Below are positions 16,264 to 63,520 of a stretch of DNA of 64,000 nt, piece after piece. The translations under genes were made by a program, and so were the position numbers. How positions within the stretch are numbered: position 1 is the first letter of the stretch; the number at the start of each line of letters is the position of its first letter. The stretch is from Phoronis australis (taxonomy: Eukaryota > Animalia > Phoronida), in the NCBI GenBank assembly GCA_002633005.1, contig NMRA01000069.1, positions 850,990-914,989 of the forward strand, in the 5' to 3' direction. The notes under the pieces were generated by a model. It worked only from the letters and a program-made list of their open reading frames with translations. It was not told the DNA's origin and ran no database searches.

Positions 16264-16700
16264 TGGGAATACTGAGGTGCATGTGTTTGAGATGAAACTG
16301 AAGGTCTTGCAGACAGAATATATGACGGATGGGCGAGGGGTTCATTGAGTCGATGCAAGGAGGATTCTGAGGTGCATGTGTTGGAGGTAAACTTGAAGGA
16401 CTTAGAAGTTCCATACATGAAGGAGAGGGTTAGGGGTTCACTGAGGTGATATAGTGGGGATATTGAGGTGCATGTGTTGGAGATGAACTTGAAGGACTTC
16501 CCGGAAAATATATGCAAAACCTGGGAAGGTTCACTTAGGCGACGCAATGGTATACTGAGGTGCATATGTCGGAGATGAATCTGAAGAATTTACTGGCGGA
16601 GTGTAAGACAGAGGTGGATATTGGTTCACTGAGGCGATGTAATGGCAATACTGTGAACATGTTACTAGCCCAATCTGAAGGGCTTGCAGCAAGGTCTGTT
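16177..16700 (+). repeat. Degenerate ~96-bp tandem repeat running from the RBSN coding end into the 3' UTR
   Basis: GAGGTGCAY..GAGATGAA..GAAGGAC..GGTTCACTGAGGCGA units start at 16177, 16274, 16369, 16465 and 16557, with a degraded unit at ~16653. Confidence 0.9.
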
Positions 16701-27588: not shown

Positions 27589-27718
27589 ATGGCTGCCGAC
27601 CAGAAAACTTCTTCGCGAATCGCAGCGTTGGTAGCGCTCATAGCTGGAATTGTATATGTTTCCTACCGATTCACTCGTGACTATTGGACTGGAAGACTAG
27701 AGCCATTCGAGGAGGAAG
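27589..27718 (+). CDS. ARMC10: ARMC10-like exon 1 (signal-anchor TM)
   Basis: AAAATGG start context; MAADQKTSSRIAALVALIAGIVYVSYRF; donor AAG|GTTTGT. Confidence 0.75.
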
Positions 27719-42700: not shown

Positions 42701-45700
42701 GTCCCTTATATGTATATTAACCATCTACAGTACGTCACTGCAAAAAATAATCGGACAGAATGTACCATAATTCTACGTCATGATGACTAAGTTAAGTGCA
42801 TGGGGAATTCCCTGTCATGGTGGTCGAGGGCAATGTGGTCACATGACAGGGAAATGAAATTTCTCTTGATTATTTTTGGTACGTTCTGTAGTGAGTATTT
42901 TGCACAACAGTCGAACATACGCAGCCTGTGCATCTGGCTGGCCGGATGTAAGATTGTTCTGATGGTACTGTACTTGTTTGTTTCCAGAGAAGAAAAAGAA
43001 AAAGAACGGAGACAAGAAGAAAGACGAGAATGGAGATGGTGACGGACAGAGTAGAGAAAAGCCAGAAACTAGACTGGGTAAATATCTTGAGCTGTAACGG
43101 GGATGTCTCACGGAAATTCTCACTGCGTTCTCAAGAATTTTAACAAACTGTTAGAACCAAATGAATACTGAAAACATTTGGCTGCAATCTAATCTATACC
43201 TCCATATGGAGGGGCTGTATTCAGTGAGTCTTTTTGGCCAAAGTTGCTAGTTTCTGTTAGTCCCCAACCTTGGTCATCATTTGTCGCGTCTACACTCAGC
43301 ATGCCCTAGAACGACTTGAACGAGTGCAGCTTACCCTCTCTGTGTGTGGATCGTGCACACATACATATCCGATAACTTGAGTAAGGTGGAAGTTGTCCGT
43401 CTATGCATTACAATGAACAGCTAATGCGAATACAGGGAACAAAAGAAGACTAGTCTGTATGTAATCGCACCTGATAGTTATTTCCGTATGCACCCCAGGT
43501 TTGTGGCCACACAGGAATTAGAAGTAGCGCAAGTTACCATAGAACAAGTTACCTTACCTCCATAAGGTGGAGTAAGTTGTCATTAAAGAGGCAAGTTACA
43601 CTAGTTAAAATAGCATCCAGGCAGCCATTAAAACTAGCAACAATTCATAACAGGAGTAACTTGTAGGATAAGTGTGTCTGTGGACGGCACCAAAGATATA
43701 TGGTTCAGGGCCCAGTTGCCGGTTGCATGAAACAGTCCCAAATAGGGACTCAACTAAGGTCCCTAAGTCTTTTTACGTATTTGTTTCTCTATGGACTCAC
43801 AGATGCAATATTTTTTATCATTTCGTGTTTATTATGAGCTTCTCTTTGATAAATGACATTTTCTAATAATTGAATTCAAAACTGAGCCCAACGTTCATTG
43901 AAAATAAATAGGGACTCAGTCCTTAAATTGGAGGTGTTGCATGAAAAGATACCTAAATATTTTCGATAATATTAACAATTCAACGTAGAATTCACTCTCG
44001 ACTTGTATCAAAGTCAAAAGTTGACTTAGTATTAAAACTAAAACAATTCAAGAAAGGGCAATCGATGTTTTCAAATGTCCAAAAATACGCAGTAGACTTA
44101 GGGAACTTAGTTAAGTCCCTATTTGGGACTGTTTCATGCAACCGGGCACAGATGTCTTGGGAACAAGTTTTGGGTGACACGCCCTTAACTTAAATTCCCG
44201 TGTAGCGCTTTATTTGAAAACCATGGTATTACAGGGCCCTTGATGCCTTAAATCAGTTTTTGTTCAATTGCAGTGGGACCGAAATTTTGTATCTTCGTCA
44301 GTCCTTGGGATGGGGATATAGCTCTGAAAACTGCAAAAAGAATGGTTATTTCGAAGAATAAATTTGTTGTAGAGTATTGAGAGGTTGTGGTGGACTTTAA
44401 CAGCACGGCCATTCTCATCTCACTACAGAAGACGCTAACAACACAATGTCCTCGGCGAGCACTGCCACAGGTTACGACCCTATCACTCGGGTTATTAAAA
44501 AGTTGCAAGTGAAACGATCTCCAAAATGAGTGAAAATAAAACTAGACTTTAATGACTACCATCCGACTTGGGTCATACGTCATTGCCTCAATTTTCATCG
44601 AGGAAAGTCAACTTGGGATTTAAATGACTCGCTATTATGTTCGAGGACCGAGATTTAATCAACCAGTCGGTCATGTGTACCCGGTTTTTGAAAAACCCAG
44701 CAGAATCAAGTAAAAAAAATAAAATCCACTTTCCTCATTTGCTTACTTATCAATTTCAGTTTTACTATATTTCACGATGATAAATGAAAACTTAGAAGTG
44801 ATGTGGTTTGCCTTACTTTTTGTGCTGAATTTTACCTGATAAGTTGCGGCATGTCATTTTTATTATTTCATAAAAGCGGAGAAAGGTCAGCGCCACCTTC
44901 AGAAAGAATGAAAAACTACTTAGAAAATGTCTGCTGCAAATCGATCGTTGATCGATACGTGGCCAGTTTACATGGACTTTGATGGATTACAGTCTTAATT
45001 TTGGCAATTAAAAAACAAAAATTTCATATCTACTACTGAAATACGGAAGTTCTGTTTGGAATCTCTTATTCCTTGAATGAAATCAGATTCTGTGAACTCC
45101 GTCTGTTTTCCATTACCATGTAAAAATTCTTAAGTTTGCGACGAAAATGATTTCATAAAGTTTCTGTAATTTCTGTTTTTTAAGTCTTGAATACATTGTT
45201 CCTGATAAAATGTTCTTGAAAAGTTGTTTTTGTTCCAAACTGATGAATTTTTACTGTAGACGCCAAAAAATGATACTCCCTGCCGGACTCATTATTTTAA
45301 CTTAGATTTTGAGATTGTTGCACAACAAAGTGTTCCAACTATTGGCTCACGCGGTATTTTAGCTGTGGTATTACGGTAAAATCCCACAAAATTAGGACTG
45401 GTGAAATTTTTTCATATTTTTTCCGGGAAAGATATGCAGCACTAAATTAATACCTTAGCATGTTCAAGTTCTGGACATTAGCAACCTCCAGACAAAATTT
45501 TGAAAAACTTTAAACAATTCTAGCAGTTATTCTGTCTGATAATTGATATTTTATGATATTGAAACAAAAGTCTGTTGTTTTGACACTCTCTTACTTCATA
45601 CAGATACTCTAATCTGAATAAGCATTGTTTTTAAGACATTGTAAGAAGATGAGGCCAACTTGAGTCTGGCTTAATTTGATGATAATCACACATTGTCATC

Positions 45701-48700
45701 ATTGTCTCGTAACTATGGCAACATAGAAAACGCATGGGTTTTTTTGAGGAAGGGCTTAGTCCAATATACTCAAGTATTAAAAAAGATAATGAATTTCTTT
45801 TTTGGCTGTACCACAAAGACTGACATCTAATTGGAATTGCCCTAATACTGTGGTGTTTGTTATGAAACTGATGATTGTCGTGTGTATTGGTTCGGGGTTG
45901 AGATGACTAGTACGGTTGTATTTTTACAACATTAAACAAAACTTCCATTTGTCATTTTTGTATTTCATCTTCTGTACCTAACTGAAGAATTTTTATCATA
46001 CTTATCAAAATTCTCCATAAAGTTTGGCGACCTTAACTGTACTGTCATCATACGACTAGTTTTTAATTTAAACTGTCTGTATCACCTGGCAGTCATCGCC
46101 TTCAGCTTAGCTGTATACTGGGTATATTCTTCTGGATCAATACTTTCACCGCAATTATCTACACTGCCTGTTAACGCGAGTTGCCCAGGTTAATTGTTTG
46201 TAACACATGTGGCACACTGATGGGAGGGAATAAAGATGAGTGCTATGAATACAAAATTTGAAACAATTGTTCTTTTCCAATATTTTTGTTAACGGTATAT
46301 TGAGTATCCAAATGTACCTGGGATTGCCGGTACATTTTTGTTAAAGGTATATTGAGTATCCAAACATTCGCTGGAGTACCTGAGATTACCGATGTGGCTT
46401 TGATTTGTCTTTTTTTAGTAAACAGAAAACTAGAGGTGCTTCGTGTGTTTGTTAACAGCCAATATCCCCCTCAGTCCCTGTGAAAAAGTACCATTATTAC
46501 GTGAAGTAGACAATCGTGACAGATTGCCTGTGCTTGCGTTATGTACAAACTTTCCGATTATTGCTGAACAATTTCAACTTCCATCTGTTTAGTACTTACT
46601 GCGTGCTCAAATATGTGCGTGCCTACTTTGTGCCGACATGAGATTTTTGCAAGGTCGGCAAATGAAATTTGAGGTCCTATTGGTGGCTTGTTGGTCGCCA
46701 AACTGAGCCTTGGTGGTAAATGCTGGTTGGAATGGAGCTTAACAATCACTTCATTCTTATTTTATCTTACTTTGAAGTCAGCCATTTTTGGCCATCCATT
46801 ATAGTGCTTATTGTAACTTTCAATAGTTTTGTTTCCTCTACTTTTTCTGAATTAAAGTCAATTGTTCACAAAGGATTGAATAAGAACGAGGATTTTATAA
46901 AAAGTATTAGTCTGTCTGTATAAAGGTTTTTTCAATTAGCGTTTGCTCGAGTAAGAACGGAAATGAGATTTAAGAGTCATGCGTGAGTGAGTTTAAGTTC
47001 AACAGATGTCATTTTTGAGGTCAAAGGTCAAATCCAAAAGCACATTTAAGTTTATTTTTGGCCACTTGTGTTTGAATATTCACCCTGAGCATATTTTCAG
47101 AAACTTTTCGTACTATGCGCCCACTGTGGATTGCTCCCAAGGGGCTCTCACGGAAATGACTGTCCAAAAAGACCCCCGATGGAGATCTATTGGAGCCTTG
47201 TATTGCAGCCACTGTGCCTGATTCAGCTGTGGCCTTTTAAGGAATCTTGCAATAGGAAGATTTTACATTCGCAACAGTTTTTGCTATAGCAATGCTTCTG
47301 TGGACAAGTGATTTAACTGAAAATTCTGATATTCATTTTAAGAATCAAGATAACATTGGCGTCTTCCTCTAACATGCAAAAGCAATGATCAAAAGGGCCC
47401 TCGTGAAGACCTCTTTGAATGTTTCTGTCCAAAAGGGCCGCGATGGGTCTTTGTCATGGTGTCGGCTCTTCCAGAAATCCCCAGTACTTTTCTTTTTTAA
47501 TGTTTGTTACGAAATCTTCAGAATACAATGAATATACATAACCCAGAAAGCGCCAAGAGGCATTAGATCTGGGTAAAAAAAAATGCAAAGAAGTCTCTAT
47601 ACAATGATTATATACGAATACATAAAAAAACTGATGTTAAGAATACAATGATATATGACAACGTACTAGGCATATATGTTCAGCTAGTTTGACATATGGC
47701 AATCTCTGGAAGTCTCTTTAACAAGTTTTATTTAGGTTGAGATTTCTTAACACCATTAAAAGGAAATTTAAAGCAATTTGTGGTGAGGTTTTTGTTGAAA
47801 TTTTCTTCAGGTTAAGGTTGTGTTGGACCTTACTGAGAATTCTGCGTATTTTTGAAAATATCGACAGACTGATGGATTTTATATTTTCTGAAAATAGAAA
47901 GCCTGTAGAATTTGATTTTTGGCATTTTAACAATCATCTATTAATTCGGTCATGTGGCCACGTCTTTTTAGCAAAAAAGAAAGTTGCATTTGTAGCAAAA
48001 CAACATCAATAAAAAACTGGTCAAATTTTATTTCATATGAGTGTTAATGGTGAGAGCTCAGAACGCTTATTTTCATTTTTTTCTCACTTACTGCTGTGTG
48101 ATATTGCAAAAATGTCACTAATTTGGGAGGAAGGTGCTTGCCAATGTTGGCCCTTTTGATTTTTTAAAGGTTCTAATTGTTGCGAATGACCACATCTTCT
48201 TAAAACTTTGTTCAAGTTAACTAGACGCATTGAACTTGAAAATTATAAAGCATTTCTTTGGTGTCATTAGGCTTTTGTGAAAAATTAAACTTTCCCTTGT
48301 CCATCATATTGTGTCCCAAATTGGTACCGAACATTAAAATGTTGAAATTTTGAAGAAACCTTATGCAAGGTGATCATGGATTTGAAAGTAGTACACTTGT
48401 CATCTTTATTTCAGACTTGTCGCAATCTTGGGAAAAGGTTGAAAGACCGAGCGAGGAAGGCGGTTTTGAAATGGTTGGTTCTATGCAGGACGATTCCGTC
48501 ATTGTGCTTAAGCAAGAACTCACTAGTGGGTCAAGTGGACTGGCAGATACACCCACTGACCCCGGACAGCAACACACTCTTGATTATGGCTCCGTCCAAC
48601 ATACAGAGCATCATGTGACACAGTCTTGCAGTAAATCTGTCGATGACGATGAGCCTGCGCCTCGTGAGGCACGGCACAGACCTGCCCATTGGACAGGACA

Positions 48701-51700
48701 AAACCTGCTTGGCCCAGAGTCACTTGGAATAGGCGGCACCTCGGGTATGTAACATGCACTGGTCAACCAGGTTTTATTGTTGGTTACGATGTATTCTATG
48801 TGTTGATTACATTTAACAAAACTACTAAATTCAAAATGGGTCTAAATGGCTTTGTTTGGCCTGAGCACTTCTTTTAATTCTGCGAACAGGCCTTTTTGGT
48901 AGGATTGTTGTTTCTAAGTCACCTGTTTAGAAAAAGTACTGGCTGTCGAATGGTCCATCCAGTATGGCAGGTGTTAACAGAAAAGCGACGGATAACCATG
49001 ATTCTCATTTTTCATTTTGAAAAATGAAAGACGTTGCTTGAAAATAACCAATCGAAAATAAAAACTCTTGAAGGACATTCCTCAAAAAAATAACTGAAAT
49101 TAGGGATCTGTTTTGTGACAAATGTGATAAAAACTGGTTCGGCCAAAAATTTGTTTCTTTTCTTTGTCGTCTTGTTTTGAAACCCTTTGCTCACCCACTA
49201 AGTAAAATGTAATCATTGATATCAGCCAAGGTTTCGCTTTTTTAAAAGCTGTACAAAAGCACGTAAACAAGGGTAAACAAGGTTTGAAATGCTATGGTTT
49301 GTCAAGTTACTGGTAATAAATTGCACACCAATTTTGCTCATCTCAGTAGATTTTTTTTGAAAACATGAGCAACTAAAAAATACCACACCACCAGCCTAAT
49401 TTTCAAAAAAAAGAAGGCGCGTTTTGACTGAAAGCCAGTTTAAACATGAAAGTCAACTACAGAACAAATTATACAAAGGGGTTAGTCAGAAAAGTCTGAC
49501 TCTGCAAACAGTACAAGTTAAAATTGGTTATAACCAGTTAGAACTGGTTTAAAAGCCGAAAAATCGGGACCAATTACAAAGATATGAGTGGAAGACTACA
49601 GGTAGGAACTAGTCACAGCCGGTTACTGCCAGTTACAATAGAGTCGTCCTGGATTACAGTGATATTCGAATTTCGCTGTATTTACCCATAATGCCGTAAA
49701 CATCCGTCAGGTACATATGCTGCTTTGTTTTCATGCCACTGTTATTTGTTGTTGACTGATTCTTAACAAGTTTTTCTTCTTTGCATTACTCTGTTTGTTC
49801 TTCCATTGCCAATGAAGTATTACATAACTGCTGTGCTGCGCGCTGCAGTTCCAACATGAGAAAGTTTGATGGATACATGATCTGAAGTTCTTCGCCTTCC
49901 CAATATTAGTGAGGGACACGAAAATGTGCTGATTTTCAAAACGAGGTTATGCACTTTCTTATTTCCGGGACAAAGGAGAGTTCTACCACCATGTAATCCG
50001 TAACGACCCTATTGGGCTTACATTGATTTCTTTAAGAGCAATTCAGAATAAAATATTTTTTTGAAGTTGTCGTGTTTGTCCCTTCAAATGAACGATTGAT
50101 TTATCTGCTGCAGTTTGGAAACATGCACTAGTGGTTGTCAAAAACTTGCAACTGAGCTTAGTTGACATCAATACATTATGATGGGAAAAATATCGTTTTT
50201 AGAAAGTTTTAGAAATTTGCACCTTTGGCAATTTTTTTGAGTCACCTGAAATGATTATTTTTCAGACCACCATGTAAGCCTGCCCGTTGATTCACATCCT
50301 GTTACATCTGGTCAACATGTCTCTGGTGATCCACATCATGTAGCATCTGCCGGACATCACATTCCAGTTGATTCACATGGCTTTATTTCAACTGGACATC
50401 ACATCTCAACTGATTCACATGGTGTCACATCTGCCGGACATCACATTCCAATTGATTCACATGGCTTGATTTCAACTGGACATCACATCTCAACTGATTC
50501 ACATGGTGTCACGTCTGCGGGACATCACATTCCAGTTGATTCACATGGCTTGATTTCAACTGGACATCACATCTCAACTGATTCACATGGTGTCACATCT
50601 GCGGGACATCACATTCCAGTTGATTCACATGGCTTGATTTCAACTGGACATCACATCTCAACTGATTCACATGGTGTCACGTCTGCGGGACATCACATTC
50701 CAGTTGATTCACATGGTTTGATTTCAACTGGACATCATGTCTCAACTGATTCACATGGTGTCACATCTGCTGGACATCACATTCCAGTTGATTCACATGG
50801 TTTGATTTCAACTGGACATCACGTCTCAACTGATTCACATGGTGTCACATCTGCCGGACATCACATTCCAATTGATTCAAATGGTATGATGTCTCCTGGA
50901 CACCATGCCCTAGTCAATTCACATGGTATGATACCATCCGGACATCATATCCCAGTCGCACCTACCAATCACATTTCATCCGAATTTCTGGCTGGAGGTG
51001 ATGGCCACCACGTGCCGGTGACCGGTCACTCCGCTCTTTATGATAATCACCATATGCCGCAAACTAGCGCTCACGTACCATCAAGCGAGCATCACACTTT
51101 CCCTCTCAATAGTCACACTGGCAGTGGTGATCACACCACCATTCTGTCTCACGGCGCTCTCGATGGTCATCATAGTGATGTGACTGGCCACCATGGTCTT
51201 GCTTTCGGTACCATCAACCAAGGCTACACTGATGGTCATCACGGTGTCCCTGACCAGCATGGGATTTCTTCACATGGGATCAGTCTGGAGGATATTGGGC
51301 TTACAGCAGACTCGCATGGAATCTCTGAAGTATTGGCTCACGAAAATGGAGTTGGCAATGTTGGACATCATGGCGTGGAGCCTCATCATGGTGAGATTTC
51401 ACTCGTGGGATCCTCCAACGAATTTTTGGGCACAACGTCTCTGTCCAACAATGGCTACAGTTTAACGCCAGAACAACTGGGTCTGTCTGGATCTGGCATC
51501 GTAGACAGCGACACCAGTCTTGCCTTTGACACGACCATGACGCCAAGTCGCAATGGACACTTCCTGGAAACCTCGCAGATTATCCCTGTCGATGTACTTG
51601 GCCTTGATAGCGAGGCTCAAGATGGAAATGTAAGCAGTACATCTACTGTTGAGCAGCAACCCATAACTGAGGTTGATTTGAAAAAACCTAAGTCAGCTGT

Positions 51701-54700
51701 GTCGGGTAGTTCATCGAGTGTTAACGCCTCAAAACCAGTGACAAAAAAACAGCTGACAGCTGCATTAGACTCCCTTCCGTCAGACACTGGAAAACCGAAG
51801 GATTTGAAAGCCATTGTTCAAGAACTCAATAGTGATCCGACTAATTCCAACCATACTGAAAAGGAGTCTTCTTTGATTAGTGCTATAAAACATCAGAATC
51901 CCTCCAAGACCAGCTTTAAAGATTTGCTGGATGGAGGCAGGTCTGAGGTGCAGGCGGATGCTGGCTCGGTATCACAAGACGATATCGTAGATTTGCTGGA
52001 GGCAGTCGACAGGAATGCTCTGCTTCGGAAACATGCCGACACGTTGCTGTGTCTGTTGTCTGTGGATGATGAGGAACAACTGGGTAAAACTCTAGTCACC
52101 GTGTGCAAGTTGGCAGCGTTCACCAAAAACCAGGTGGGTATTTGGTTGGAGAGTGTGTTCTTTTGGTGGCTGAGCTGTTCAGATACGTTGCTGATATAGT
52201 TTCTTGTTCTGGCAAAACTTGTGTACATTAGTTCTCAAAAAAGTTGACAAACCTCGTTGAAATTCGTCTGGCTTTGTCGAAGTTACTTGTAAAATTCAAA
52301 CAGAATCCAGGTGAAAAGTAACACCCTGTCATTCAATGTTGTCCAAATTTTGTTCTGCAAGCTGGCCATTCTTCAACTTGACTGTTTTGTTTTCGAAATC
52401 TTCTATATCGAGGTGGGCTTGCTCTTCCCTCACAAGTATTGCTACAGCAATTGATTTTCCTTATCCTAACATTTTCTTCTCATTCATGGCAATTTTCTCA
52501 TGATGCCCAAATTCATTCTTTGCTAACCACTGTTGTACCTAGTTTTAGTATTCAGAGTTTTGACACTTTGTATCAAAACACATGATGAGAAAACCTGGTG
52601 GAAGTAGAAATGAGTCTTCAGAAGAAAAGAAACGTGCTGCATGCGATTGGACACCTTGTGAGAAAAAGTTGCAGTGAGAACTTCCTATACTGACTAAAAA
52701 CATGTCTTCATTTCACCACTTCATAACACTACCTTAAGCTCAAAGCTGTGTTGCGTAGATGCTAGAATTTCGCAAGTAAATGTAGTCTGATCATGTGCAC
52801 GCTCACAATACATGACTATATCTCGTGAAGTTTTGTGAGGTGGTTACATCTAACACACATAAAAAACAGTGCAGGTGGCCTGATGTGATTTACCGTGCAT
52901 CAGACGTGCGCAGGCCTCATGGTTGGGCCCATTGCACAAAACACCTTAGCTAAAGCACGAGAGCCCAGTTGTGGTTCTTCTTGAAGGAAGTTTTCAAGTC
53001 TGCCCGTCTCCTTTAAGAAAATGGACAGATGTTTCCATTTGTTGCTCTGCTTTATATGTTGTAGGCATGTAACAGTGCTATCCAGTAGGTTGCTCCATAG
53101 CCTATAAAAAGCTGGGCAAGACTCTATCAGGTGTTTGGGAGATTCTATGTCAGCACCACACTCGGAACACACTGGGCTCCCCATATACCCAGTAATGTGT
53201 CTGTGTCAGGCTAGGTTACAATGGACTGTCAAAATTTGAATCATGTGTCTTATGCCCCATCTATTTAGACTCAAAAGGTTTTTTGAACCTTTTGGTTTGA
53301 TCACATTGGGAAAATTCTCCTTGGTCTCTGCAGGAATTAAGTTATGCCCACTGGGCTGCTGACTGGGTATGTGCCCAGTTGTATGTCTGTGACACATAGC
53401 CAAGGGTAACTTCGTAAGAAAAATACTAGGGCAAGTTAAAAGGCTTTTGTAATTGACCTATCGCAAGCTCCGCCATCTTGCAAACAGTCGGCAAACAATA
53501 AGTTTTACCCGGCAACATGTTTGTCGGGTAAAAGAGCGGCTTGGAAATGAAGGTGTGTCAAAAATGCTGTTTTCTGATTGGTCAGTTAAGCCGTCAGTCA
53601 AAATCCTGGCGATAGGTCAGTTACCACAGTATGCGCTTGAGTCGCTCAGTGTAGTCATCATAATTCCAAAATTACCAAAAACCAATCTATGGCAATTCTC
53701 CACCTGGTGTGCACAAAAATAATTACCAAAGTTATCATTTTCCATTTTTTAAATGCACTATTCTTAAATATGCACGTCTAGCATTTGGTTATTAAGTTTG
53801 CACTACTTGTCTTTGATAAGTTACTGTAGTAAAATGTCAATTACGGTAGAGGATTGCCGTACCGCAATAAACTCTTTTAAGACAATGAACATTATGTTAG
53901 TTGAGTTGAGTTATGAAGTGTTATCGATCCCTGCAGTAAGAAACCACATTCAGGCACCTGTCTGGAAGTGATTCATTTTTGTTCTGATTTCCATTAAGAT
54001 AAAAGCTGCAACTTCAAAACAGCTGAATGAAAGGTCAATGAGATTCTTCAAATATCTTACATGGATAATTTTTTTCTATTTGTGACCTGGTTATTAAGCT
54101 TGGCGTGGTGGTTGTCGTTGACCAACTGCTGTGTTTTTCTAAAGATGACCTCATGCAATGCCACATTGGCGTGCTAGTCGTCACGTCTTATGTAAGTCCT
54201 TCACTTTCGTTGGAAAGGTTTATGTGCCCATTTTTCATAAGGGGTTTATGAAAAGAATATGAATTTGGAAAACTGTAACATTGTTTTTGAGATTCCGTAT
54301 CAAATGAAATTTGGTCCATCACATTATTGATTTATTGTTGGCGTTCACAGCAATATTTAGTTGAAGCCCTTGAGACTTGAAAAAGGGCAATTGTGTTAAT
54401 TATTTTGAGATTTTTACTGTATTTTATGTGTAGCGACACTGAACTCAACAGTCAGTCTAGAAGACAGTCTACTTTATTGTCCCTGGGTGTCATAGTGGCA
54501 TTTGCAGTAATTTGTTCTCTACCTCCCAGTGTGCATTAGATAAAAATTTTCTTGATAAACTGTTTAACAGGTTCATTAGCGTAATCGCACTCATCCGCTG
54601 CTTTTAGCATACTCTAATTATTGCTCCCATCACGAGTTGGTGCACAGCAGGGAGCAGTATTCTTGTCCTTATATCAGGGCGCGTTGTTGAATGGATGTCT

Positions 54701-57700
54701 CAAGAAAGAATACTTAATAATTTTGTTTCTGTGTTGTACCATGGTGTAGGTGACCTTGTCGTCATTTTCAAGGTTTTGGGAAACATTGGCGCTTTACTTT
54801 GTACCTAGGTTTAAGTGGGACAACTCCAGGCTCAGTTGATTTTGGTGACCTTGACATGATTTTCAAGGGTTTAATGCTACTTTAAGCCTTAGCATTTTGC
54901 CACTTAATGTTAATTTTACTGTTCTCCATAGTTCTAAATATTTAGTGGTAATTTAATTTCACTCGCTAGAATGTTGAGTCTTCAAATTTGAACTGGAAGT
55001 TTGGCTACCGGTATTTACGAAAGTAAAGGTTCGTATTTATTCACTCCTTAGATAATTTTCATAATAGTCATTTCAGCGGTCCCGCATTTGAGAACCAGTT
55101 TTCTCCACTGAATAACAGGCATCAAACTGGTTATCAAAAGTGGCCATTGTTCATTGGTTGTATTCCTTTGGTGCATAATGCGGCATTGCAGAAATAAACA
55201 GCAGTCATAATGCAACATTGAAAGTTAGGATTTGTTGTTGGATGATTTTTGAAACGAAGATTATTGTTGATGCCAGACTTGTGTAATCCCGACTGACAAA
55301 TAGCTAGTAATTAGTGAATTGGCGTCTAGTCAGCATACTGAGTATATGGCAAAGGAAGGGGTTGATGACTGACTTGCATTTTGAAAATTTACTGACAAGG
55401 TTGGTAAAAAATAATCTGACCCTAGAAACATGTATAATTGGTTAACTTTGGAAAGTCGTGTCTAAGAGTATTGGCTGTGCAGCTCCATATGAATCTTACT
55501 GATACTATGCTATGTGGACTGTTCTCCAAATGCCTTTTTAAAAATGTTTTGCATTTGCATCAAAAAATAGAAGATTGATAGTATTTATCATAAAAACATC
55601 AAGAGTTGCATAAATCAAAAACGAAATTATAATTTAGAATACTAACAGTGTGTTTGAGATTTAAAGTTGAACATCTGTATTAAATTTGGTCATCTTATTG
55701 ATGTCGCTGTTTCAAAATGTACACTTTAACTTTCTTTTTTGATAAGTTTTACTAATGACATGTTGGTATAAAATCAAAAATCAAATTCTATAGCCTTTCT
55801 ACTTCCAAGAATACTTTTACTCAGAGTCAAAATGTTTAGTTTCATAGGAATTGGGCTAAATACAAACACTTGTCGATAAGGCTTTCATAACATTTTAATA
55901 GTTCTTGAGACTGGTGTTTATGTGGTAGAGGGCTGCCCATCATTGTTTATAGCACATAATGTCTCCCATGTAGTGTACATCTTGAATAGTGTGGAATCAT
56001 TACACATGAATTCTGTTACGATAATATATTGTTGTTGTTTTTAATGTCATTATTGGTATAGGTACTGCTACTGTGTCAACTTATAAAGAAAAAAATGTAA
56101 GTATAGACATCTGTATCTGATCTTGCCACAGTTAGGTGATAAATCTCTCATACCCTGGATGGCCCTCCATGAAGTTTAATTTCCATCCGAGACCTGCCCA
56201 TTTCCATTTTTGGATGGATTTGATTACAGCTGTTCCTTGGTGGCATGTTTATGCCCCGGTTACATCTATCAAGCTGGTAGATTTTCAGAAAGTTCGGCAA
56301 GACAATGTTTCTGTCAAGGACAAGAGGGTGCCTACCTTTTGTGGACGAATCCGACTTGAGTGCGAATTATTGCTATTTTAGGACATCCTGCGTGAAGCTG
56401 GGATTATCAACAGACTCTCAGTCCTTCTGCGTCAGCGAATCGGAGACGTTCGCCTCCCAGACAGGCAGGACACTGTTCGTCACGTGTCCAATTGCATCAA
56501 TAACCTCGCCGGCAATGAACAGAATCAGAAAGTCATGCAGGTAGGTTGCTAATTCCGTATGTCATTCAACTTCTACATTAAGGTAAAATCTTACAATTTT
56601 GGAAAAACATTGTTGCTGAAATTACCCCTTTTCACTTTGCAAGTGTAGCATTGTTGTGAATGTGAAACATCTCTCATGGTACTGTAATTTTTCACCTATT
56701 TAGCACAAAATTTTACTGACTGTTGAAATTTAATTTTGCCAGTTTTCTCAATAACAATAAAGATGAAGAAAATTTTAATCAGTTGTTAGCTTTTTGTGTT
56801 ATGTAGATGTCACAAAACAGCATTTGGTTAGGTTTCCATAATTTTCACCAATGTAATGTCGGCCTTAATTGAAAAAATGGAAAATTACAAGTTGGGCAAT
56901 CATTTTTGAGCAAAGTTATTGAAGGTCTACCGTTAGCTGTTGGTCACAACTCAACACAGAAAAGCGTTTAATTTGGGGCTGCGTATGAATCGTGAAAAGT
57001 ATGGGGAGGCAAAAGTTCACTTGTTGGCCATATTGTGTTCTAAATTGATAAGAGCTCAGTGTTGCTCAGTATGTAATGGAAGCTAAGAGACATTTCAACA
57101 GTAATTTAATAAACCTTTGCGTTACGAAGATATCGTAATATCGCATTCGTCCGGGTTCTTCGGGGCATTTAAATTGAGAAACTTGCGTTTAGTCTACTGC
57201 AACATCATAACATAGGCATTGAAAAGTGAAATGTATAGTGGACTATTCTTGGATGGGTGTAGTGAAACTACGGCATTCACGTTGACTGATACAGTACTTA
57301 TTATTGTTATGTTGGACTCTACGGTCTAGTCTCTCATTCATCCAAATATCTACAAAAGTATTGAGATTAACTCGGTAACGGTTTATATTTTCTCTGGGTA
57401 GAAAGCTGTAGAATGTAATTTTTCACCCTGTACCAATCTGCCATTAATTGGGTCATGTGACCACGTCTTTTTAGTAAATTAACTCAAAAGGAAATTAAGG
57501 CTCATTCATAGCAAAATAACAGTATCAAGAACTTGACCAAATGTCATTTGATGCAAATATCCATGGCTAAATCTCAAAAGCTCTAATTTCTTGCTACATT
57601 TTTCTGAATTCTCATTTCGTTAAAAAATCACTAAGTCCTATTTTTGGACAGCCTCATCCAAAAGTGGAACATTTAGTTTAAAAACAATTTCTCGCATCGT

Positions 57701-60688
57701 TTTAGAGAACTAGGCATTAAGCAGAGTATCTGACTGTTTCATGTGAATCCATTCAGCCGTTTCTGAGATATGATGTTCCAAAGTTAGGCAAATTTTGACT
57801 TTCTTTTAGTGCCTTTAATCGATGTTTTAACTGGGGCAGTTCTATCTTGGGGTTACAAGGAGACTGTAACAAAAAAATTTCTATTTCTGTTCCTGTTGCT
57901 GTCTCGGCCATGCATCGCATGGTTGTGTGTTCCTCGATGTTGCTATGGAATTCTAGAAAATGACCTTTAAAGCTACACGCTGTGAAAAGTTCAAATATCA
58001 GCAATTTGAGATTAGAATAAATTGAATTCGTGGCAGCTTGTCTAGTCGCAAGTGGAAGCAATGACCTCCATCAGTTGCACAAAATTTTGTAAGATTTGAA
58101 CTGATAAATGTCCGCATTAAAAGTATATGGAAAAATCTCATTAATTTCAGACAAATTTTAAAAAAGTAATTGCCGAAATGACTCTTTCTTCATTTTTCAC
58201 CTGCTTCCAATGTTGTTGTGAATGGTCGCATTCTTTCAAAACATCGCCTAATGGCAGGTATGGTTTAAAAACATTTATTTGATGCACGATATGTCTCATG
58301 GAAAAATGAGCCATCAAATTTCACCTGTCTGCCATATGTCCTAAGGTAGTCAGATTTTACCGTAATGTGGTATCCACGCTGTACTGTATCCACGCTGTAC
58401 TGTATCCACGCTGTACTGTATCCACGCTGTACTGTATCCACGCTGTACTGTATCCACGCTGTACTGTATCCACGCTGTACTGTATCCACACTGTACTGTA
58501 TCTCTCCCCCAAAAGTGTTAATTTCAATTACACCATTACACCTTGATACAGTTTTGAAAGCTATATCTTTAAAATAGCAAGAAGATATTTCCAAGAAGGG
58601 ACAGCATCCACACTGTACTGTATCTCCTCTCACCAAAAATGTTAATTTCAATATTGATTTCCTTTTACACCTTAAAATAGTAGGAAGTTATTTCTGGGAA
58701 GAGGCAACTAGTTAAAGCACGATATTTGATCTCTTTCCCAAAGTTACTTTTTCATTGAAGAGAAAGGAGATGGTTAGTGAAATTTGTTCTAATGAATTGT
58801 ACCAGTGATCTCTTCCTATGACATTCAATAGGGGCATGTCAATATCAGTGAATGCCATCACAATTACCCAGTTCAGTGGGGGGCTGTGGTCAATAACAAT
58901 GTCATTAGCATATCAGATTTGCATACTGTAATGGTAATGTCGTCATGGCACTGGGTATTCTCAAAGTGTTGCAATGTTCCCGTTGATGAGTCACGGCAAT
59001 GTTAAACCAGTTGAAGATTTTTTGTCATATTTTTAACATTGGGGAGAAGCAATTAGGCGAAATGCTTTGTTTTTTGTTGCCGGGTTAATGATGTTGAAAT
59101 TATGGGCTATTGGCAAGCTGTGGCTCTCTGTCTCTCCCTGAAGCGTGTGTTTTGCACACTTATGGAAATAGCAATTATTGTAAATGATGTGTGCCCTAAT
59201 GCTGTTACTGCACATGATAGGTTTAGTTTTCAAGCTCTAGTGTTCTAGTGCCAAAGTTCAAAACTAGTCGTATTAAAGGCTGAATTAAAATGTTTCAACA
59301 TATGAAAGTGGATTAAAATGACTACTAAAATTGTTATTGTTTTGTTTCTTAGATGAAAGACACACTCCACATCTCATTTCTTATCTTATTGACATGAATT
59401 TGCATAATATGTATTCTGTCAATAGCTTCACCTTGATGGTCTTGGTTTAGTCAGATGCAACGTGGCACTTTGGCAGCCATTTCACTCTTTGCAGAGTCAT
59501 ATCTGCATTGTGCATTGTCTGAGGAAGTATCCTTCTGAAATTGGTGTTTGGATGGAATTAGCCTCCCGTTTTCGCTTTAACTTACCATTTTCGAGGTATT
59601 TGAGATTTTCTGGTGACTGAGCTTTTTTGACTGATTCATCACTGCTCTTGTTTTGGTTTACCGTCCACTGTACTGTTTCTTAATCATTTTTATCCTGATC
59701 ATCCTGGATAAAATAAATGAATAAATATAGGTGTAAAACCTATGGTTCTTTTTCGCAGGATTGCATAATGGCTCTGATAGACATCACGAACAACCTGGAC
59801 ATGTACAATGAATCTGTCCAGATCTCTGCACTCCAGGCACTCACGAACATCTCTAACCTTGAGGTTCACCACAGCAGGTTCACTCGGATAATTCGGAAAC
59901 TCTACGCTTTGGTTGATAACGGCTCAGAGCCGGTGCGTCTCCAAGCTCTGAAGGTTCTTGCCAACCTCTCGGCCAATCAGGAATCCGTACTGCACCTCTT
60001 GGCTGCTGGGGTAAGTGCCATAATTTGTAAACATTTGATTGCTTGGATCTCTTTTCTTGTTGGATGTGGAACTTAATCTAAGTGGATTTAGGTGGGAACA
60101 GAGGACCTGGCGCCCCCTTTTGACACAAAGAACTCGGGTGATTTAGGGTTCGCGGAGACATTTTTCCTTTGAGAGGTGTCGTAACATTAAGCGGTGCCGA
60201 ATGTGGAGAAACGTAACAAATCTTTAAAAGTGCTTTATGTAGTGAAATAATCCACTTGCAGACGAAGTCGACTTGTTGTGTATGCACAAAAACCAGCGTG
60301 ACATTGTTTGATTTTGTCAAAGTCGTTCTTAAAAGTGACTCTTGAAAGCACTCTGACTAATTGTTTTTCGTTTCAGTCGCCCAAGTGTAGCATTGAGCTC
60401 CTGGATCTAGATACACCCGCTGAGTTGATGCTTCGATGGGTGACAGTTCTGGCCAACGTCATCGAGACCGTGAAGTCACGTGGCATAACGCTTGAATCGC
60501 TGCCCACGTACGATAGAGCTCCGTCTCCAGAGACTCTTTATCAAATCATTTACGGCCACAGCCAAGCTCATGAGCTACGTAATCTTTTAGTTACTCTTTC
60601 CATCAATGTTAGCGATGCCACCATTCGGCAACTGGTCAACAAGATCCTGTCAAATTGGTCACTGTCGGCCAAACATTCTGATGTGTGA
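27589..60688 (+). CDS. ARMC10: ARMC10/ARMCX-family armadillo (Arm_2) protein with N-terminal TM anchor and a large His-rich insertion, ~1046 aa; exons 27589-27718, 42988-43077, 48415-48744, 50266-52133, 56382-56540, 59759-60010, 60377-60688
   Basis: N-terminal TM IAALVALIAGIVYVSY followed by R. The C-terminal part LAAFTKNQDILREAG..NCINNLAGNEQNQ..VQISALQALTNIS..LQALKVLANLSAN resembles ARMC10 as recalled (NAAFSVNQAIIRELG..ALNNLSVNVENQ..VQLAGLTLLTNMT..VLKLLLNLSEN). Intron phases 1,1,1,0,0,0 join to a 3141-nt open frame. Linkage of the first exons to the rest is inferred. Confidence 0.8.
27944..28574. mobile_element. Nested MITE with ~220-bp TIRs and an 8-bp TSD (hAT- or P-like)
   Basis: Termini CACAGGCGTCCTCAGCT...AGCTGAGGACGCCTGTG; GTTACAAA duplicated at 27936-27943 and 28575-28582. 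Confidence 0.88.
28651..31168. mobile_element. Nested unclassified non-autonomous DNA element
   Basis: Short TIR GGCAATT(C/G)CAT...ATGCAATTGCC; recurrent subterminal (C/T)GTCC(G/A)TCAC motifs near both ends; host TIR sequence resumes after it. Confidence 0.55.
35071..41023 (+). repeat. Near-identical tandem duplication (35071-37823 and 37825-41023) joined at an N
   Basis: Both copies start ACTTTGCCCACTTTACACC and end CGACTCAACAAA. A single N at 37824 sits exactly at the junction. Copy 2 has extra segments at ~39575-39706 and ~40371-40684. Confidence 0.92.
39686..39870 (+). pseudogene. Frameshifted THAP zinc-finger remnant (transposon-derived)
   Basis: MPFCIAFGCTN, frameshift, then ...LLLKKPSLLAKWLNAMKVKNLPVSEHSHVCGDHF gives the C2CH THAP signature (CxxxxC...W...VCxxHF). 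A truncated copy lies at ~36818-36975. Confidence 0.7.
42988..43077 (+). CDS. ARMC10-like candidate Lys-rich cassette exon (90 nt)
   Basis: TTTGTTTCCAG acceptor; EKKKKKNGDKKKDENGDGDGQSREKPETRL; donor TGG|GTAAAT; symmetric phase 1. Confidence 0.6.
43708..44148. mobile_element. MITE, possibly PIF/Harbinger-type
   Basis: TIR CCGGTTGCATGAAACAGTCCCAAATAGGGACT..CCCTAAGTCT at 43719 with its reverse complement ending at ~44145; the left end begins GGGCCC. Confidence 0.75.
48415..48744 (+). CDS. ARMC10: ARMC10-like exon (330 nt, disordered, LIR-like motifs)
   Basis: TTTATTTCAG acceptor; open frame DLSQSWEKVERPSEEGGFEMV...; donor CGG|GTATGT; symmetric phase 1. Confidence 0.75.
50266..52133 (+). CDS. 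ARMC10: ARMC10-like giant exon (1868 nt): His-rich repeats, Ser-rich linker and start of the armadillo domain
   Basis: TTTTTCAG acceptor; in frame with ORF 50466-52199; ends LAAFTKNQ with donor CAG|GTGGGT. Confidence 0.85.
50346..50933 (+). repeat. Coding minisatellite: 84-bp unit (two 42-bp subunits), 6 near-perfect copies plus 1 degenerate
   Basis: Unit encodes SAGHHIPVDSHGLISTGHHISTDSHGVT; units start at 50346, 50430, 50514, 50598, 50682, 50766 and 50850. Confidence 0.95.
52900..53310 (-). mobile_element. 3' remnant of a non-LTR retrotransposon (I/LOA/R1-type C-terminal CCHC knuckle)
   Basis: ILTVHCNLA*HRHITGYMGSPVCSECGADIESPKHLIESCPAF fits the LTGH..Cx2Cx8Hx4C pattern; contains an in-frame stop. 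Confidence 0.7.
56382..56540 (+). CDS. ARMC10: ARMC10-like armadillo exon
   Basis: DILREAGIINRLSVLL...NCINNLAGNEQNQKVMQ; TTTTAG acceptor; donor CAG|GTAGGT. Confidence 0.88.
58371..58502 (+). repeat. 16-bp minisatellite, 8 copies
   Basis: (TATCCACGCTGTACTG)n; a further partial copy with flank at ~58606-58655. Confidence 0.95.
59759..60010 (+). CDS. ARMC10: ARMC10-like armadillo exon
   Basis: DCIMALIDIT...VQISALQALTNISN...LQALKVLANLSANQESVLHLLAAG; donor GGG|GTAAGT. Confidence 0.9.
60377..60688 (+). CDS. ARMC10: ARMC10-like last coding exon
   Basis: SPKCSIELLDLDTPAELMLRWVTVLANV...; TGA stop at 60686-60688. Confidence 0.88.
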   Translation, partial: SPKCSIELLDLDTPAELMLRWVTVLANVIETVKSRGITLESLPTYDRAPSPETLYQIIYGHSQAHELRNLLVTLSINVSDATIRQLVNKILSNWSLSAKHSDV

Positions 60689-63520
60689 TTGTTTATATTG
60701 GACAACAGGTGCCAAAAATTGACCGGGAATTCCCCATTATTACGGTCGCCATCAGAGGTAGGATGGATGGGTGACCATCCAGCATGTTGGGCAAACAAAA
60801 CTGTGTCCCATAATTTTTGGCACACAGCTGTTAAGTAACTGGTGATAAAACGCAATTGTTTTAATGCGTTCATCCTCGGCATGTTACAGCTTGGTGCATC
60901 TAATGACATTTGCGTCAATTTTACTGGTGTATTTGGTTATTCTGGCATTGATAAAAGGTTAGTGTTTTTAGTTGTCCTGTGCTCACAAGTGCAGCATTTT
61001 GCCTTTGGTCAAAAGCTTGCAAAATAACGGCGATACATAGTGGTGATGTAGCAGTGTAGAAATAGGTCACATTTTGACCTCGATGTTACTTTTTAATTAT
61101 GTTGCCAAACAGATTCCTCATATCATGCAGTCAAAACAGCCATCCACTCTGTGGCATTATTATGCGCGCAGAGGACGGACATTTGGGATGACCCTAGAAG
61201 TGGTATGCCGCTATTCTTGTGTCATATTTTGTGTTTTTGATCCCCCTAAATTTGCCTAGTATGTGTATGGGTGAGTCTGTGAGTTGCTCAAAAACGTACA
61301 TCTTCTTGTGTCACTGTAGGTCCAGCTGCCCAGTACATTGCGGCTGCAGGCAGTTGTTGCTGAGGATTGCCACTTTAAGAACCAGGCTCTGTTATACTTG
61401 GATTGTTGTTACTGTTAGTAAACATAGCTATTGAACAAGAAAAGTGATCTTGTTCCGTTGTTGTTGTTCAGAATATGACCAAGAGGTGTCATTGGTGTTG
61501 TTGTTGACTTTTGACCCTTGTAATGTAGATTCTTTCTTTGATCGTTTAGAGGCGCAAAAACACATATTTTAGGATTTTTTGTTTCAAAACACTTGCCTTT
61601 GCATTAGACCACTTAAAAGTACGGAAAAAAATGAGAGCGTGCTCGTTTAAAACTTGATTCGTTGGTCAGTGTAGGCGACATTCATGCACTTTTTGCAGAT
61701 TACGCCGTAGGCTGGTTACCTGCTGAAACATTAGATGGATGTTTCGAGGCTTTAAGAAATATTTTAGAACAAAGGTGGGAGAGGATTTTAGCCTTACATC
61801 AATACAAACTCTAAAACCTTCTTTACAATGAACAGTACAATTTCGAAGTAACAGCGATTTAATTGATTTTATTGAAAAACTGATACATTTCTATAAGTAA
61901 TGTGTAATTGGCATTTTGGCTTGAAGTTCCCAATTTTGACTTTGTTTAGTTATTTTGTGTGTCACTTTAAGTATTCTTTATTGCCATCCTTTTTTTGAAC
62001 AAGGAGTTGGATTTAACTTATTCTGCAAATTTGTAAGTTTCCATCTTTGAATGATAACAGGGCTTTAAAAAACTGGAAATATTTGTGATTTTTATGCTCG
62101 TAACTGCCCCTGTCCTTATTTTATAAATTCTATGGGTACATATTTAATTCATTACAACATTAAGTTTTTCTACAAGAAATTTCTTTGACTATTACGACTT
62201 TCACAGAAATTTTGGTTATGTTGTGAGAGTTTGTTTAACCCTAGGTGATATTATGTTAGAGTGTCAGGGTTTGTAACATTTACGAAATGCATTTTGTGTT
62301 GTGTTTATGTTGAGATATGTTCATTTCTCCCAGTTTGTATTAAATGGCACAATTCTTTGAATCAACTGCCGCTTCATAAACAACTAGTCTTCAGGGCCAC
62401 TTAGTGTTTTTTGTTGTTTTTTATGTTTAGTACAAAAAGATAATGTACAATACTGAAATTAAGCTCAGAAAGCAGTAGAAATTATTAGATCTGAGCATTT
62501 ATTGAGGTGAAAAGGGGCTACAGGAAATTTCCCCAAACAGGTTCTCCCAAATATAAGCACATTGGCCTCGATCTTACTGTATAGACCTATGGGCATACTT
62601 TCAGGGCTGCAATTAAGGACATCTACAGTTTGTCAGGTTTTTCTATGTCAGTGGTACAGGCAAATGTTGAACAAAAAAGATTATTTGAGAAATGGAACTA
62701 AGTTTTTGGTTTATCTAAAAATTGTACTTAAGGCTATGTTAGACCATATAAAAATGACCAAATTTGTCTAACTTCGGAGCATCGTTTCTCTGAAATGACC
62801 GATGGGATTGATACGAAACTGTCAGATACCATGCTTTATGTACTGATATGGGAAATGCTGTTAGGCAATTGTTTTAAAATGTAACCCATTTTTGCATGAG
62901 GGGCTTTCAAATATAGGGCTCGTGTGATTTTCATAAAAAACCTTGCCAAAAACAAATTATTTTAGAAAACTTAATTGTTTTTGAGATTTTGTCTTGAACA
63001 TTGATGTGAAATAAAAATTAGGTCATGTCATTGATGCCATTGTTTTTTGCTAAATTTCACTGAAAAAATAGGATCACGTGACCAATTTAATGAAAGATTG
63101 GTAAAAAGTCAAAAAACATATTATACTCAGTCTGGCTTATTACTTTCAGCAAATACATGCTTTTACAAAGTTGAAATTTGTAGTTTTGTAAGTATTTGAC
63201 TAAATATGCAGACTTTTCAATGAGGTCTTGCGTAACAGCCTCACTAGTACCACATCTATCGATTTAGGTTAGTCTAGTTTGTTGACACAAACATACAGAA
63301 TGTAGACTGATGCAGGCAGAGGAATGTTATAATTTTTTTTTTCTTGGCAGAATAGAGTTCACTAAATGCTTAACTTAATTGAAAGTTTACTATTGACCTT
63401 TTCTTAGCAACCCTGCTTGGTTGAAGTATTTCAATATTTTTTATTTGCCAATGGTTATAGTGTTAGTGTTAGTGCATTCTCTACCTCTCCATGTGTTGAT
63501 ACTCGTCACTGTGTGAAGTA

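Follow-up and report, generated by a model that had tools for sequence, protein, structure and literature searches.

Gene structure and transcription of the His-rich exon

The window analysed here is a 64,000-nucleotide stretch of the Phoronis australis genome (contig NMRA01000069.1). Its + strand, on which the exons and repeat features below lie, carries an ARMC10-family gene model of seven exons and 1046 aa, whose fourth exon encodes a large His-rich region. The coding part of exon 1 (27589..27718) comprises, by sequence and hydropathy, the start codon, a hydrophobic N-terminal anchor (aa 11-29, 27619-27675, hydropathy 1.83) and then Arg residues, and its translation aligns weakly with the N terminus of a Lingula relative. 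The junction of exons 1 and 2 is a predicted one, lying outside the stretches in which reads were aligned. Exon 2 (42988..43077, 90 nt), rich in Lys, Glu and Asp, is defined by a fitting frame and an RNA joint to exon 3 (43077>48415; 4, 14 and 16 reads in RNA-seq runs X2-X4, and one X1 contig). Exon 3 (48415..48744, 330 nt) encodes an acidic linker rich in Ser and Gly, and both of its joints are read through. Exon 4 (50266..52133), placed by its joints and RNA depth, has AG/GT ends and an open frame throughout, and contains the His region, a His-poor spacer and the start of the armadillo domain. Its terminal part (51951..52133) aligns with the start of the relatives' conserved ARMC10 C-terminal domain from about aa 746-773. 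Its length of 1868 nt, its entry in phase 1 and exit in phase 0, and its carrying the start of the domain all agree with the preliminary description.

The remaining exons complete the armadillo domain. Exon 5 (56382..56540) is joined to exon 4 in RNA and shows 40% identity to the relative L001, exon 6 (59759..60010) carries the Pfam Arm_2 match and shows 52%, and exon 7 (60377..60688), with sense-strand RNA depth, encodes the end of the domain and the stop codon and shows 37%. The intron positions of exons 5-7 are common to the gene and L001. Three of the six model junctions (2-3, 3-4 and 4-5) are read through in RNA, and the RNA joints listed included none of exon 6. The His exon had been placed between the TM-anchor and armadillo exons, and this order stands, with the addition of two overlooked exons (42988-43077 and 48415-48744). 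The gene lies head-to-head with the mitoribosomal gene MRPS25, an arrangement only suggestive of a mitochondrial role.

The RNA evidence comes from one study's stranded RNA-seq, represented by three runs of which 18-19% each was read. The two junctions of exon 4 are covered by 26 and 23 reads, and its sense-strand depth is unbroken, with every one of the 21 bin-by-run cells at 1.7-18.9. The joints listed for the three runs, at thresholds of at least 3 reads and of differences from 2 reads in 100, included no exitron, internal acceptor or skip of exon 4, although with the 18-19% sampling rare or tissue-specific forms may have been missed. The junction reads thus show that the His exon is joined to exon 3 and to 56382 and is included in the spliced transcript, with no skipping seen. 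An assembly artefact, a pseudo-exon and a separate transcript were ruled out by the junction reads on both sides of exon 4. The 1868-nt His exon is therefore confirmed as part of a transcribed ARMC10-family gene.

Family membership and predicted location

The earlier assignment to ARMC10 is supported by the Arm_2 match, the relatives and the tree. Exon 6 matches Pfam Arm_2 (PF04826) at 46.3 bits (E 4.9e-12, cut-off 20.4); exons 5 and 7 singly gave no Pfam match, though both align with relatives. A word-index protein search with exon 6 alone also gave no match. The nearest relatives are protostome Arm_2 proteins, and a tree made without an ARMC12, ARMCX or GPRASP outgroup places the gene inside a protostome group of 23 rows (95/95), next to deuterostome rows that carry the ARMC10 name. 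The gene bears introns, unlike the single-exon ARMCX retrocopies, and its seven exons match the number in mouse ARMC10 (PMC5424104). Vertebrate ARMC10/SVH likewise has an N-terminal TM segment with a basic flank, a C-terminal armadillo domain and a multi-exon gene; identity to lungfish ARMC10 is 30% over 241 aa. In Phoronis australis, the basic flank consists of three Arg after aa 11-29 and a Lys run in exon 2.

The armadillo domain has diverged. Its branch length is 1.12 against a median of 0.57, which is equally consistent with relaxed constraint and a new role, and its mean identity to lophotrochozoan relatives is 35%, whereas those relatives average 42-55% among themselves. Location on the outer mitochondrial membrane, interaction with Miro/TRAK/KIF5 and an AMPK-dependent role in fission are described for vertebrate ARMC10 only (PMC5424104, PMC6328551, PMC8666550). 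By analogy with vertebrate ARMC10 and from the pattern of an anchor plus basic flank, the Phoronis australis protein is likely to be located on the outer mitochondrial membrane with the His region facing the cytosol. The long branch and low identity would also suit a protein anchored elsewhere, such as in the ER or vesicles, or a divergent duplicate existing alongside a conventional ARMC10, with the His region serving another compartment. However, the family-like order of anchor, linker and Arm_2, the basic flank of the TM segment and the intron positions common with L001 make this most improbable; the neighbouring MRPS25 also points away from it, though only suggestively.

Architecture of the His repeat

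The His region spans 376 residues (aa 185-560) between the membrane anchor and the armadillo domain and contains 75 His, 31 Asp/Glu, two Tyr, four Phe and no Trp, Lys or Arg. The His residues form 50 clusters (His or His-His), separated start to start by 49 gaps, of which 32 are of seven residues and 41 of 6-8, with none below five. Over aa 190-476 (50283..51143), 41 heptads follow one another in a single unbroken 7-aa register, and 38 of them carry His at position 4 or 5. The repeat hierarchy rises from 7 to 14 to 28 aa, and the basic unit is the heptad rather than the 14-aa unit proposed previously. A tandem repeat search (TRF) gave a period of 84 nt with 6.7 copies and 95% matches (50344-50902). 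The homogenised core consists of six 84-nt (28-aa) copies (50346..50849) with 36 His in 168 aa and lacks Tyr, Trp, Cys, Lys and Arg. Comparison of the copies showed pairwise differences of 1-6 nt among the six and of 18-22 nt for a seventh, which with one more heptad follows the core (50850..50954). The predicted six to seven copies with six His per 28 aa thus resolve into six near-identical copies and a diverged seventh. A 29-nt degenerate pattern of the unit matched 12 times, all within the array, and 0 of 100 shuffles contained any match.

The array passes into a degenerate His region (aa 414-560, 50955..51395) with 26 His in 147 aa, corresponding to the roughly 150 aa of looser sequence in the preliminary description. 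This is followed by a spacer of about 185 aa (aa 561-745, 51396..51950), His-poor and of Ser, acidic and Lys composition, which lies before the armadillo domain and was absent from that description. The degenerate region keeps the 6-8 spacing: no His pairs occur at lags 2-4 (13.1 expected), and 24 occur at lags 6-8 (12.7 expected). At the DNA level the period is nearly gone, with an identity of 0.33 at lag 21 against about 0.27 at lags 3-12. Nine decayed heptads, placed in the register that the core sets, contain 11 His, of which 10 occupy positions 4/5 (0 of 100,000 permutations). Positions 1, 2 and 7 keep the core residue in five of the nine (p 0.03-0.17), and this partial retention of non-His positions indicates that descent from the array, with no selection on His, accounts for part of the spacing. 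The pattern suggests that an old tandem array with a 21-nt unit decayed toward its edges and that its middle recently underwent expansion in 84-nt higher-order units.

The main rival to a function of the His residues is that a lineage-specific minisatellite expanded neutrally or nearly so in a tolerant linker and does no more than provide a long, disordered, acidic tether, the His being an accident of the seed unit. This reading is quite possible; the near-identity of the six core copies in DNA, which reflects recent homogenisation, and the partly kept non-His positions both favour it. However, the His spacing has outlasted the DNA period, and none of the 376 residues is Lys or Arg. Allelic variation also weighs against it through an excess of synonymous changes, although allele counts are small. 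The non-array alleles of exon 4 show seven synonymous and five nonsynonymous changes (pN/pS 0.22-0.28, p 0.010-0.028), and the degenerate His part alone shows four and two (p 0.03-0.053). Exon 3 shows one synonymous and three nonsynonymous changes, with no apparent constraint. Two read-level variants in the array alter a His, with ambiguous mapping.

Linkers across ARMC10 relatives

Comparison with relatives showed how far the linker itself is unusual. The linkers of vertebrate and amphioxus proteins differ from that of Phoronis australis in being about 22-54 aa long with 0-1 His. Protostome ARMC10s share the architecture (Lingula 998 aa, Owenia 854, Aplysia 686, Dreissena 627 and Mytilus 516), with an armadillo identity of 33-45% and long, Ser/acid-rich linkers that are unalignable and in no case His-rich. 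Among 38 TM-bearing relatives, linker length ranges from 0 to 677 aa (median 184 aa) and 28 linkers are net negative; unrelated 10-aa tandem repeats occur in the linkers of two bivalve genera, Mactra and Dreissena. The linker is thus the part of the protein that varies most across the family, and repeats arise there readily, as would be expected of a neutral spacer. The Phoronis australis linker, of about 710 aa, is likewise net negative (-52). It contains 84 His (11.8%), against at most 4.8% in relatives' TM-bearing linkers longer than 50 aa, and reaches 12 His per 50 aa, against at most seven in 53 relatives. The contrast drawn earlier with the roughly 340-aa vertebrate protein therefore holds for the absence of a His-rich region there, but overstated the oddity, since long linkers are common in protostomes.

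These comparisons suggest that what is new in Phoronis australis is the His content and spacing rather than a long insertion, all of the sampled relatives, which include no close one, having linkers that are not His-rich. A word-index protein search with the whole His exon found no match among proteins of 342-1089 aa, and aa 185-560 gave no alignment better than E 0.09 against 125 collected proteins. A Pfam Pox_T4_N match on the array (E 2.4e-5, below the cut-off, with 0 passing stretches) was rejected as a repeat artefact. A limited literature search found no paper on a His-rich ARMC10 linker.

Structure and charge predictions

Of five single-sequence AlphaFold2 predictions for the whole exon, the best showed repeating strands over the array (10-residue block pLDDT 66-79), whereas the other four had mean pLDDT values of 29-39. 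Together with the alternation of polar and beta-branched residues in the heptads, the strands would fit a beta-solenoid with stacked His ladders, forming a rigid metal-binding rod. However, the His region folded alone had a mean pLDDT of 32.9 and no strands of at least three residues, Foldseek returned no match at E <= 0.001 among 45 rows, and near-perfect repeats are a known source of confident but false solenoids in AlphaFold2 (PMC11795689). The rod appears very unlikely. The composition and the irreproducible fold point instead to a disordered His region. With assumed pKa values, its calculated charge is -24 at pH 7.2, -6 at pH 6.5 and +15 at pH 6.0.

A chain rich in Gly, His and Ser, multivalent and of low complexity, whose calculated charge reaches zero between pH 6.5 and 6.0, might also drive pH- or metal-triggered clustering of ARMC10 into condensates on the mitochondrial surface, and bridging of chains by metal ions is plausible on chemical grounds. 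The analogy proposed was with the squid His-rich beak proteins, which are alike in their Gly/His-rich low-complexity repeats and differ in being secreted structural proteins. Their phase separation needs the Tyr of GHGxY and is abolished by single Tyr-to-Ala changes (PMC6884462). The Phoronis australis region has no GHGxY pattern with Tyr to set beside this, with none in the 168-aa core and two among the 376 residues, four Phe and no Trp being the other aromatic residues, and at the pH of the cytosol the chain carries a strong negative charge. The analogy fails on sequence, and condensation appears improbable.

A candidate metal- and proton-responsive tether

A model for the chemistry is histidine-rich glycoprotein (HRG), whose GHHPH repeats offer about 10 sites for Zn, Cu, Ni and Co, with Kd values in the micromolar range (PMC5372734). 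The analogy made in the preliminary description is a loose one. Both proteins have tandem repeats containing Gly-His-His, and HRG serves as a model for multi-site Zn/Cu binding and pH-dependent charge. However, HRG is an extracellular plasma protein with a 5-aa unit of three His plus Pro, whereas the Phoronis australis unit has 7 aa and one or two His, its clusters are never less than five residues apart, and it is predicted to be cytosolic. No HRG-type GHHPH-like pentapeptides were found in the region, and homology is neither found nor claimed.

The reading preferred here, with a probability of about 0.45, is that the His region is a disordered cytosolic tether forming a weak, high-capacity, metal- and proton-responsive segment on the outer mitochondrial membrane. 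Zn/Cu-type binding and a pH response would be its candidate functions. His clusters seven residues apart could wrap round one metal ion, and the tether may offer many weak sites for ions of the Zn/Cu type, while a drop in pH would remove its negative charge. Metal loading or protonation might then compact the acidic tether, and compaction could alter the reach of the armadillo domain toward trafficking or fission partners.

Free Zn in the cytosol is picomolar to nanomolar. Most micromolar sites would thus be empty at resting levels of cytosolic metal, so that a responsive tether would work as a switch or a buffer for surges, not as a store; the same consideration counts against a metal role. 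A stronger version of the responsive tether, in which about 50 evenly placed His sites on the cytosolic side of mitochondria form a dedicated metal- and acid-sensing ladder that collapses upon a Zn/Cu surge or cytosolic acidification and so switches ARMC10's control of mitochondrial transport or fission, linking such stress directly to mitochondrial dynamics, is doubtful. His-rich metal-binding repeats are known mostly from secreted proteins and transporter loops. One borne by a mitochondrial anchor that faces the cytosol would be a sensor built into the protein, through which metal or pH stress could act on mitochondrial movement and fission. The fixed 7-residue His spacing would also offer a clean natural peptide for studies of metal binding. 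Should the His region be a mere spacer, the comparison still shows protostome ARMC10 to be, as a rule, a long-tethered protein with a linker remade lineage by lineage.

Gene structure and expression of the His exon

The 1868-nt His exon (exon 4, window 50266-52133, plus strand) has AG and GT at its ends and falls inside a 649-codon open frame. In a seven-exon ARMC10 model on the plus strand, it follows the coding part of exon 1 (27589-27718), exon 2 (42988-43077) and exon 3 (48415-48744) and precedes exon 5 (56382-56540), exon 6 (59759-60010), which matches Pfam Arm_2 over the curated cut-off, and exon 7 (60377-60688). The splice sites are canonical, and the 1046-aa product has a single, terminal stop. 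It consists, from the N to the C terminus, of a hydrophobic anchor (aa 11-29), a charged and acidic linker, the His region (aa 185-560), a His-poor spacer (aa 561-745) and the armadillo domain. The model and the RNA joints retain the His exon of the preliminary description and add exons 2 and 3, which it had overlooked.

The RNA data, all under a single species label, comprised three stranded runs of one study, 18-19% of each being used, and an older set of contigs. Over 48300-56620, mapping at 97% likeness gave exactly two joints in the three runs: exon 3 to exon 4, in 4, 4 and 18 reads, and exon 4 to exon 5, in 7, 6 and 10. Reads of the three runs (4, 14 and 16) also span the exon 2 to exon 3 joint, as does a single contig; the exon 5-6 and 6-7 junctions are not among the best 15 of 55 joints, and the exon 1-2 junction lies beyond both mapped stretches. 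Sense-strand depth over exon 4 is 1.7-18.9 in all seven bins of all three runs, no antisense depth was found there in these runs, and the intron upstream has a depth of at most 0.27 per bin. Loss of the His-rich part as an exitron, use of an internal acceptor and a separate transcript had been named as possible objections; none is borne out in the 18-19% of each run, since only the two flanking joints occur and sense depth is continuous. Sense depth also persists across 60689-61500, to the end of the mapped stretch, indicating an ARMC10 3' UTR of at least 800 nt.

Thirty exonic variants were classed from the best 40 of 41 (10 intronic ones were dropped). Outside the array of near-identical copies, exon 4 carries seven synonymous and five nonsynonymous variants (pN/pS 0.22-0.28, p 0.010-0.028), including four and two in the degenerate His part (p 0.03-0.053). 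The corresponding counts are one and three in exon 3 and three and two in exon 5. Nine variants fall inside the array, two of them altering a His; they were excluded from the ratios because reads there cannot be uniquely placed. The allele pattern supports translation and constraint of exon 4; selection on His as such is not thereby established.

Repeat architecture of the His region

The main period called by Tandem Repeats Finder is 84 nt, with 6.7 copies and 95% matches over 50344-50902; a 42-nt period is weaker. The six 28-aa core copies differ pairwise by 1-6 nt, with five distinct synonymous and three nonsynonymous variants among them, and the seventh copy differs by 18-22 nt. A 29-nt degenerate unit pattern has 12 matches, all within the array (0 in 100 shuffles); the unit therefore does not recur through the window as a dispersed repeat.

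The array is built on a hierarchy of 7, 14 and 28 residues, and His occupies position 4 or 5 in 38 of 41 heptads in one unbroken register (aa 190-476). The start-to-start gaps between the 50 His clusters of aa 185-560, 25 single and 25 double, are exactly 7 residues in 32 of 49 cases, 6-8 in 41 and under 5 in none. In aa 414-560 the DNA period has nearly vanished; His pairs at lags 2-4 are absent there (13.1 expected; as low in 0 of 20,000 permutations), and lags 6-8 hold 24 against 12.7 expected (p 0.0006). In nine decayed heptads, with the register set by the core, positions 4/5 hold 10 of 11 His. Positions 1, 2 and 7 agree with the core in five of the nine (p 0.03-0.17), and this retention counts against a purely His-directed reading. 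We infer that an old 21-nt array decayed at its edges and that its 84-nt core was recently homogenised.

The best AlphaFold2 model of the whole exon shows a strand-rich, solenoid-like array with a block pLDDT of 66-79; the five models have mean pLDDT values of 47, 39, 32, 30 and 29. The first 240 residues alone gave no structure (mean pLDDT 33), and Foldseek found no significant match. AlphaFold2 is reported to yield confident yet false solenoids on near-perfect repeats (PMC11795689). We regard the His region as likely disordered.

Comparison with ARMC10 relatives

Word searches with single exons recovered no relatives. A metagenome scan gave one among 229 candidate stretches, L001, which comes without the upstream part and shares the boundaries of exons 5-7 (identity 40, 52 and 37%). 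A two-sequence profile then recovered 28 proteins, and phmmer on cluster representatives 95. The comparison set holds the 53 of 125 proteins with at least 280 aa and a family-profile score of at least 120; it includes isoforms and near-duplicates, is mostly molluscan where named and has no close relative of Phoronis australis.

In the armadillo-domain tree (28 rows), the Phoronis australis sequence falls within a 23-row protostome group (support 95/95), on a long branch of 1.12 against a median of 0.57. The mollusc, nemertean and arthropod-type subgroups do not include it, and the tree does not separate it from the annelid and brachiopod rows or from L001. All deuterostome rows but one, an unnamed fish protein, bear the name ARMC10 or ARMC10-like. 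Five protostome orthologues (P0002, P0004, P0016, P0020 and P0065) have long, unalignable linkers and misleading database names, such as 'retinitis pigmentosa 1-like 1', 'RIO kinase 1' and 'GPCR-associated sorting protein 2-like'.

Among the 53 relatives, 38 have an N-terminal TM segment; their linkers span 0-677 aa with a median of 184, the zero coming from an aberrant prediction. Net charge is negative in 28 of these linkers, neutral in 4 and positive in 6. Those of Mactra and Dreissena contain unrelated 10-aa tandem repeats. The Phoronis australis linker has 84 His in ~711 aa and reaches 12 His per 50 aa, against at most 7 in any of the 53. The ARMC10 architecture is ordinary, and the His-rich linker chemistry was seen in none of these 53 relatives. 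A search by title and abstract start, covering few subscription journals, found no ARMC10 His-rich linker.

Neighbouring genes and repeats

MRPS25 (mitoribosomal mS25) was identified at 23619-26931 on the minus strand. Its internal exon at ~23619-23735 matches solved mS25 chains (E 2e-6), and its likely first exon begins at 26931, head to head with ARMC10, whose start codon is 657 bases away. The two genes, both for mitochondrial proteins, may have a common promoter. Tail to tail with MRPS25 is the 3' end of a Rabenosyn-5-like gene (11480-16263, plus strand), whose last exon (15706-16263) matches Pfam Rbsn (E 1.5e-15). RBSN also adjoins MRPS25 in the human genome, and the adjacency would then be an old conserved linkage.

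Dispersed repeats occur in intron 4 (52134-56381) and at 43302-44603 and show heavy RNA coverage of either strand, including thousands of partly matching reads at ~55087-55139; they are probably mobile-element fragments common in the Phoronis australis genome. Further tandem units are of 95 nt (16177-16576, overlapping the Rabenosyn stop codon), 432 nt (12711-13813) and 16 nt (58370-58502, near-perfect, in intron 5).

Possible function of the His-rich linker

Vertebrate ARMC10 has a TM segment (aa 7-29) with a basic flank, resides in the outer mitochondrial membrane with its chain mostly cytosolic, and is tied to KIF5/Miro/Trak2 and AMPK-dependent fission (PMC5424104, PMC5865771, PMC6328551 and PMC8666550). 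Homology with this protein would place the His region on the cytosolic side. The region contains 75 His, 31 Asp/Glu and 2 Tyr but lacks Lys, Arg, Cys and Trp; its calculated charge, with assumed pKa values, is -24 at pH 7.2, -6 at pH 6.5 and +15 at pH 6.0. Coacervation of the squid-beak type is unlikely because it requires Tyr (PMC6884462). HRG repeats bind ~10 metal ions with micromolar Kd and have a pH-dependent charge (PMC5372734).

The region may act as a tether that would compact in response to metal or acid surges, or as a neutral spacer. On established chemistry, a chain carrying 50 spaced His clusters is almost certain to bind metals in vitro. Free Zn in the cytosol is far under micromolar. 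Because of this low free Zn, we tentatively favour the surge-responsive tether (probability about 0.45); a neutral spacer is the main rival and only somewhat less probable. The feature is real, expressed and regular, but it lies within the most changeable region of the ARMC10 family.
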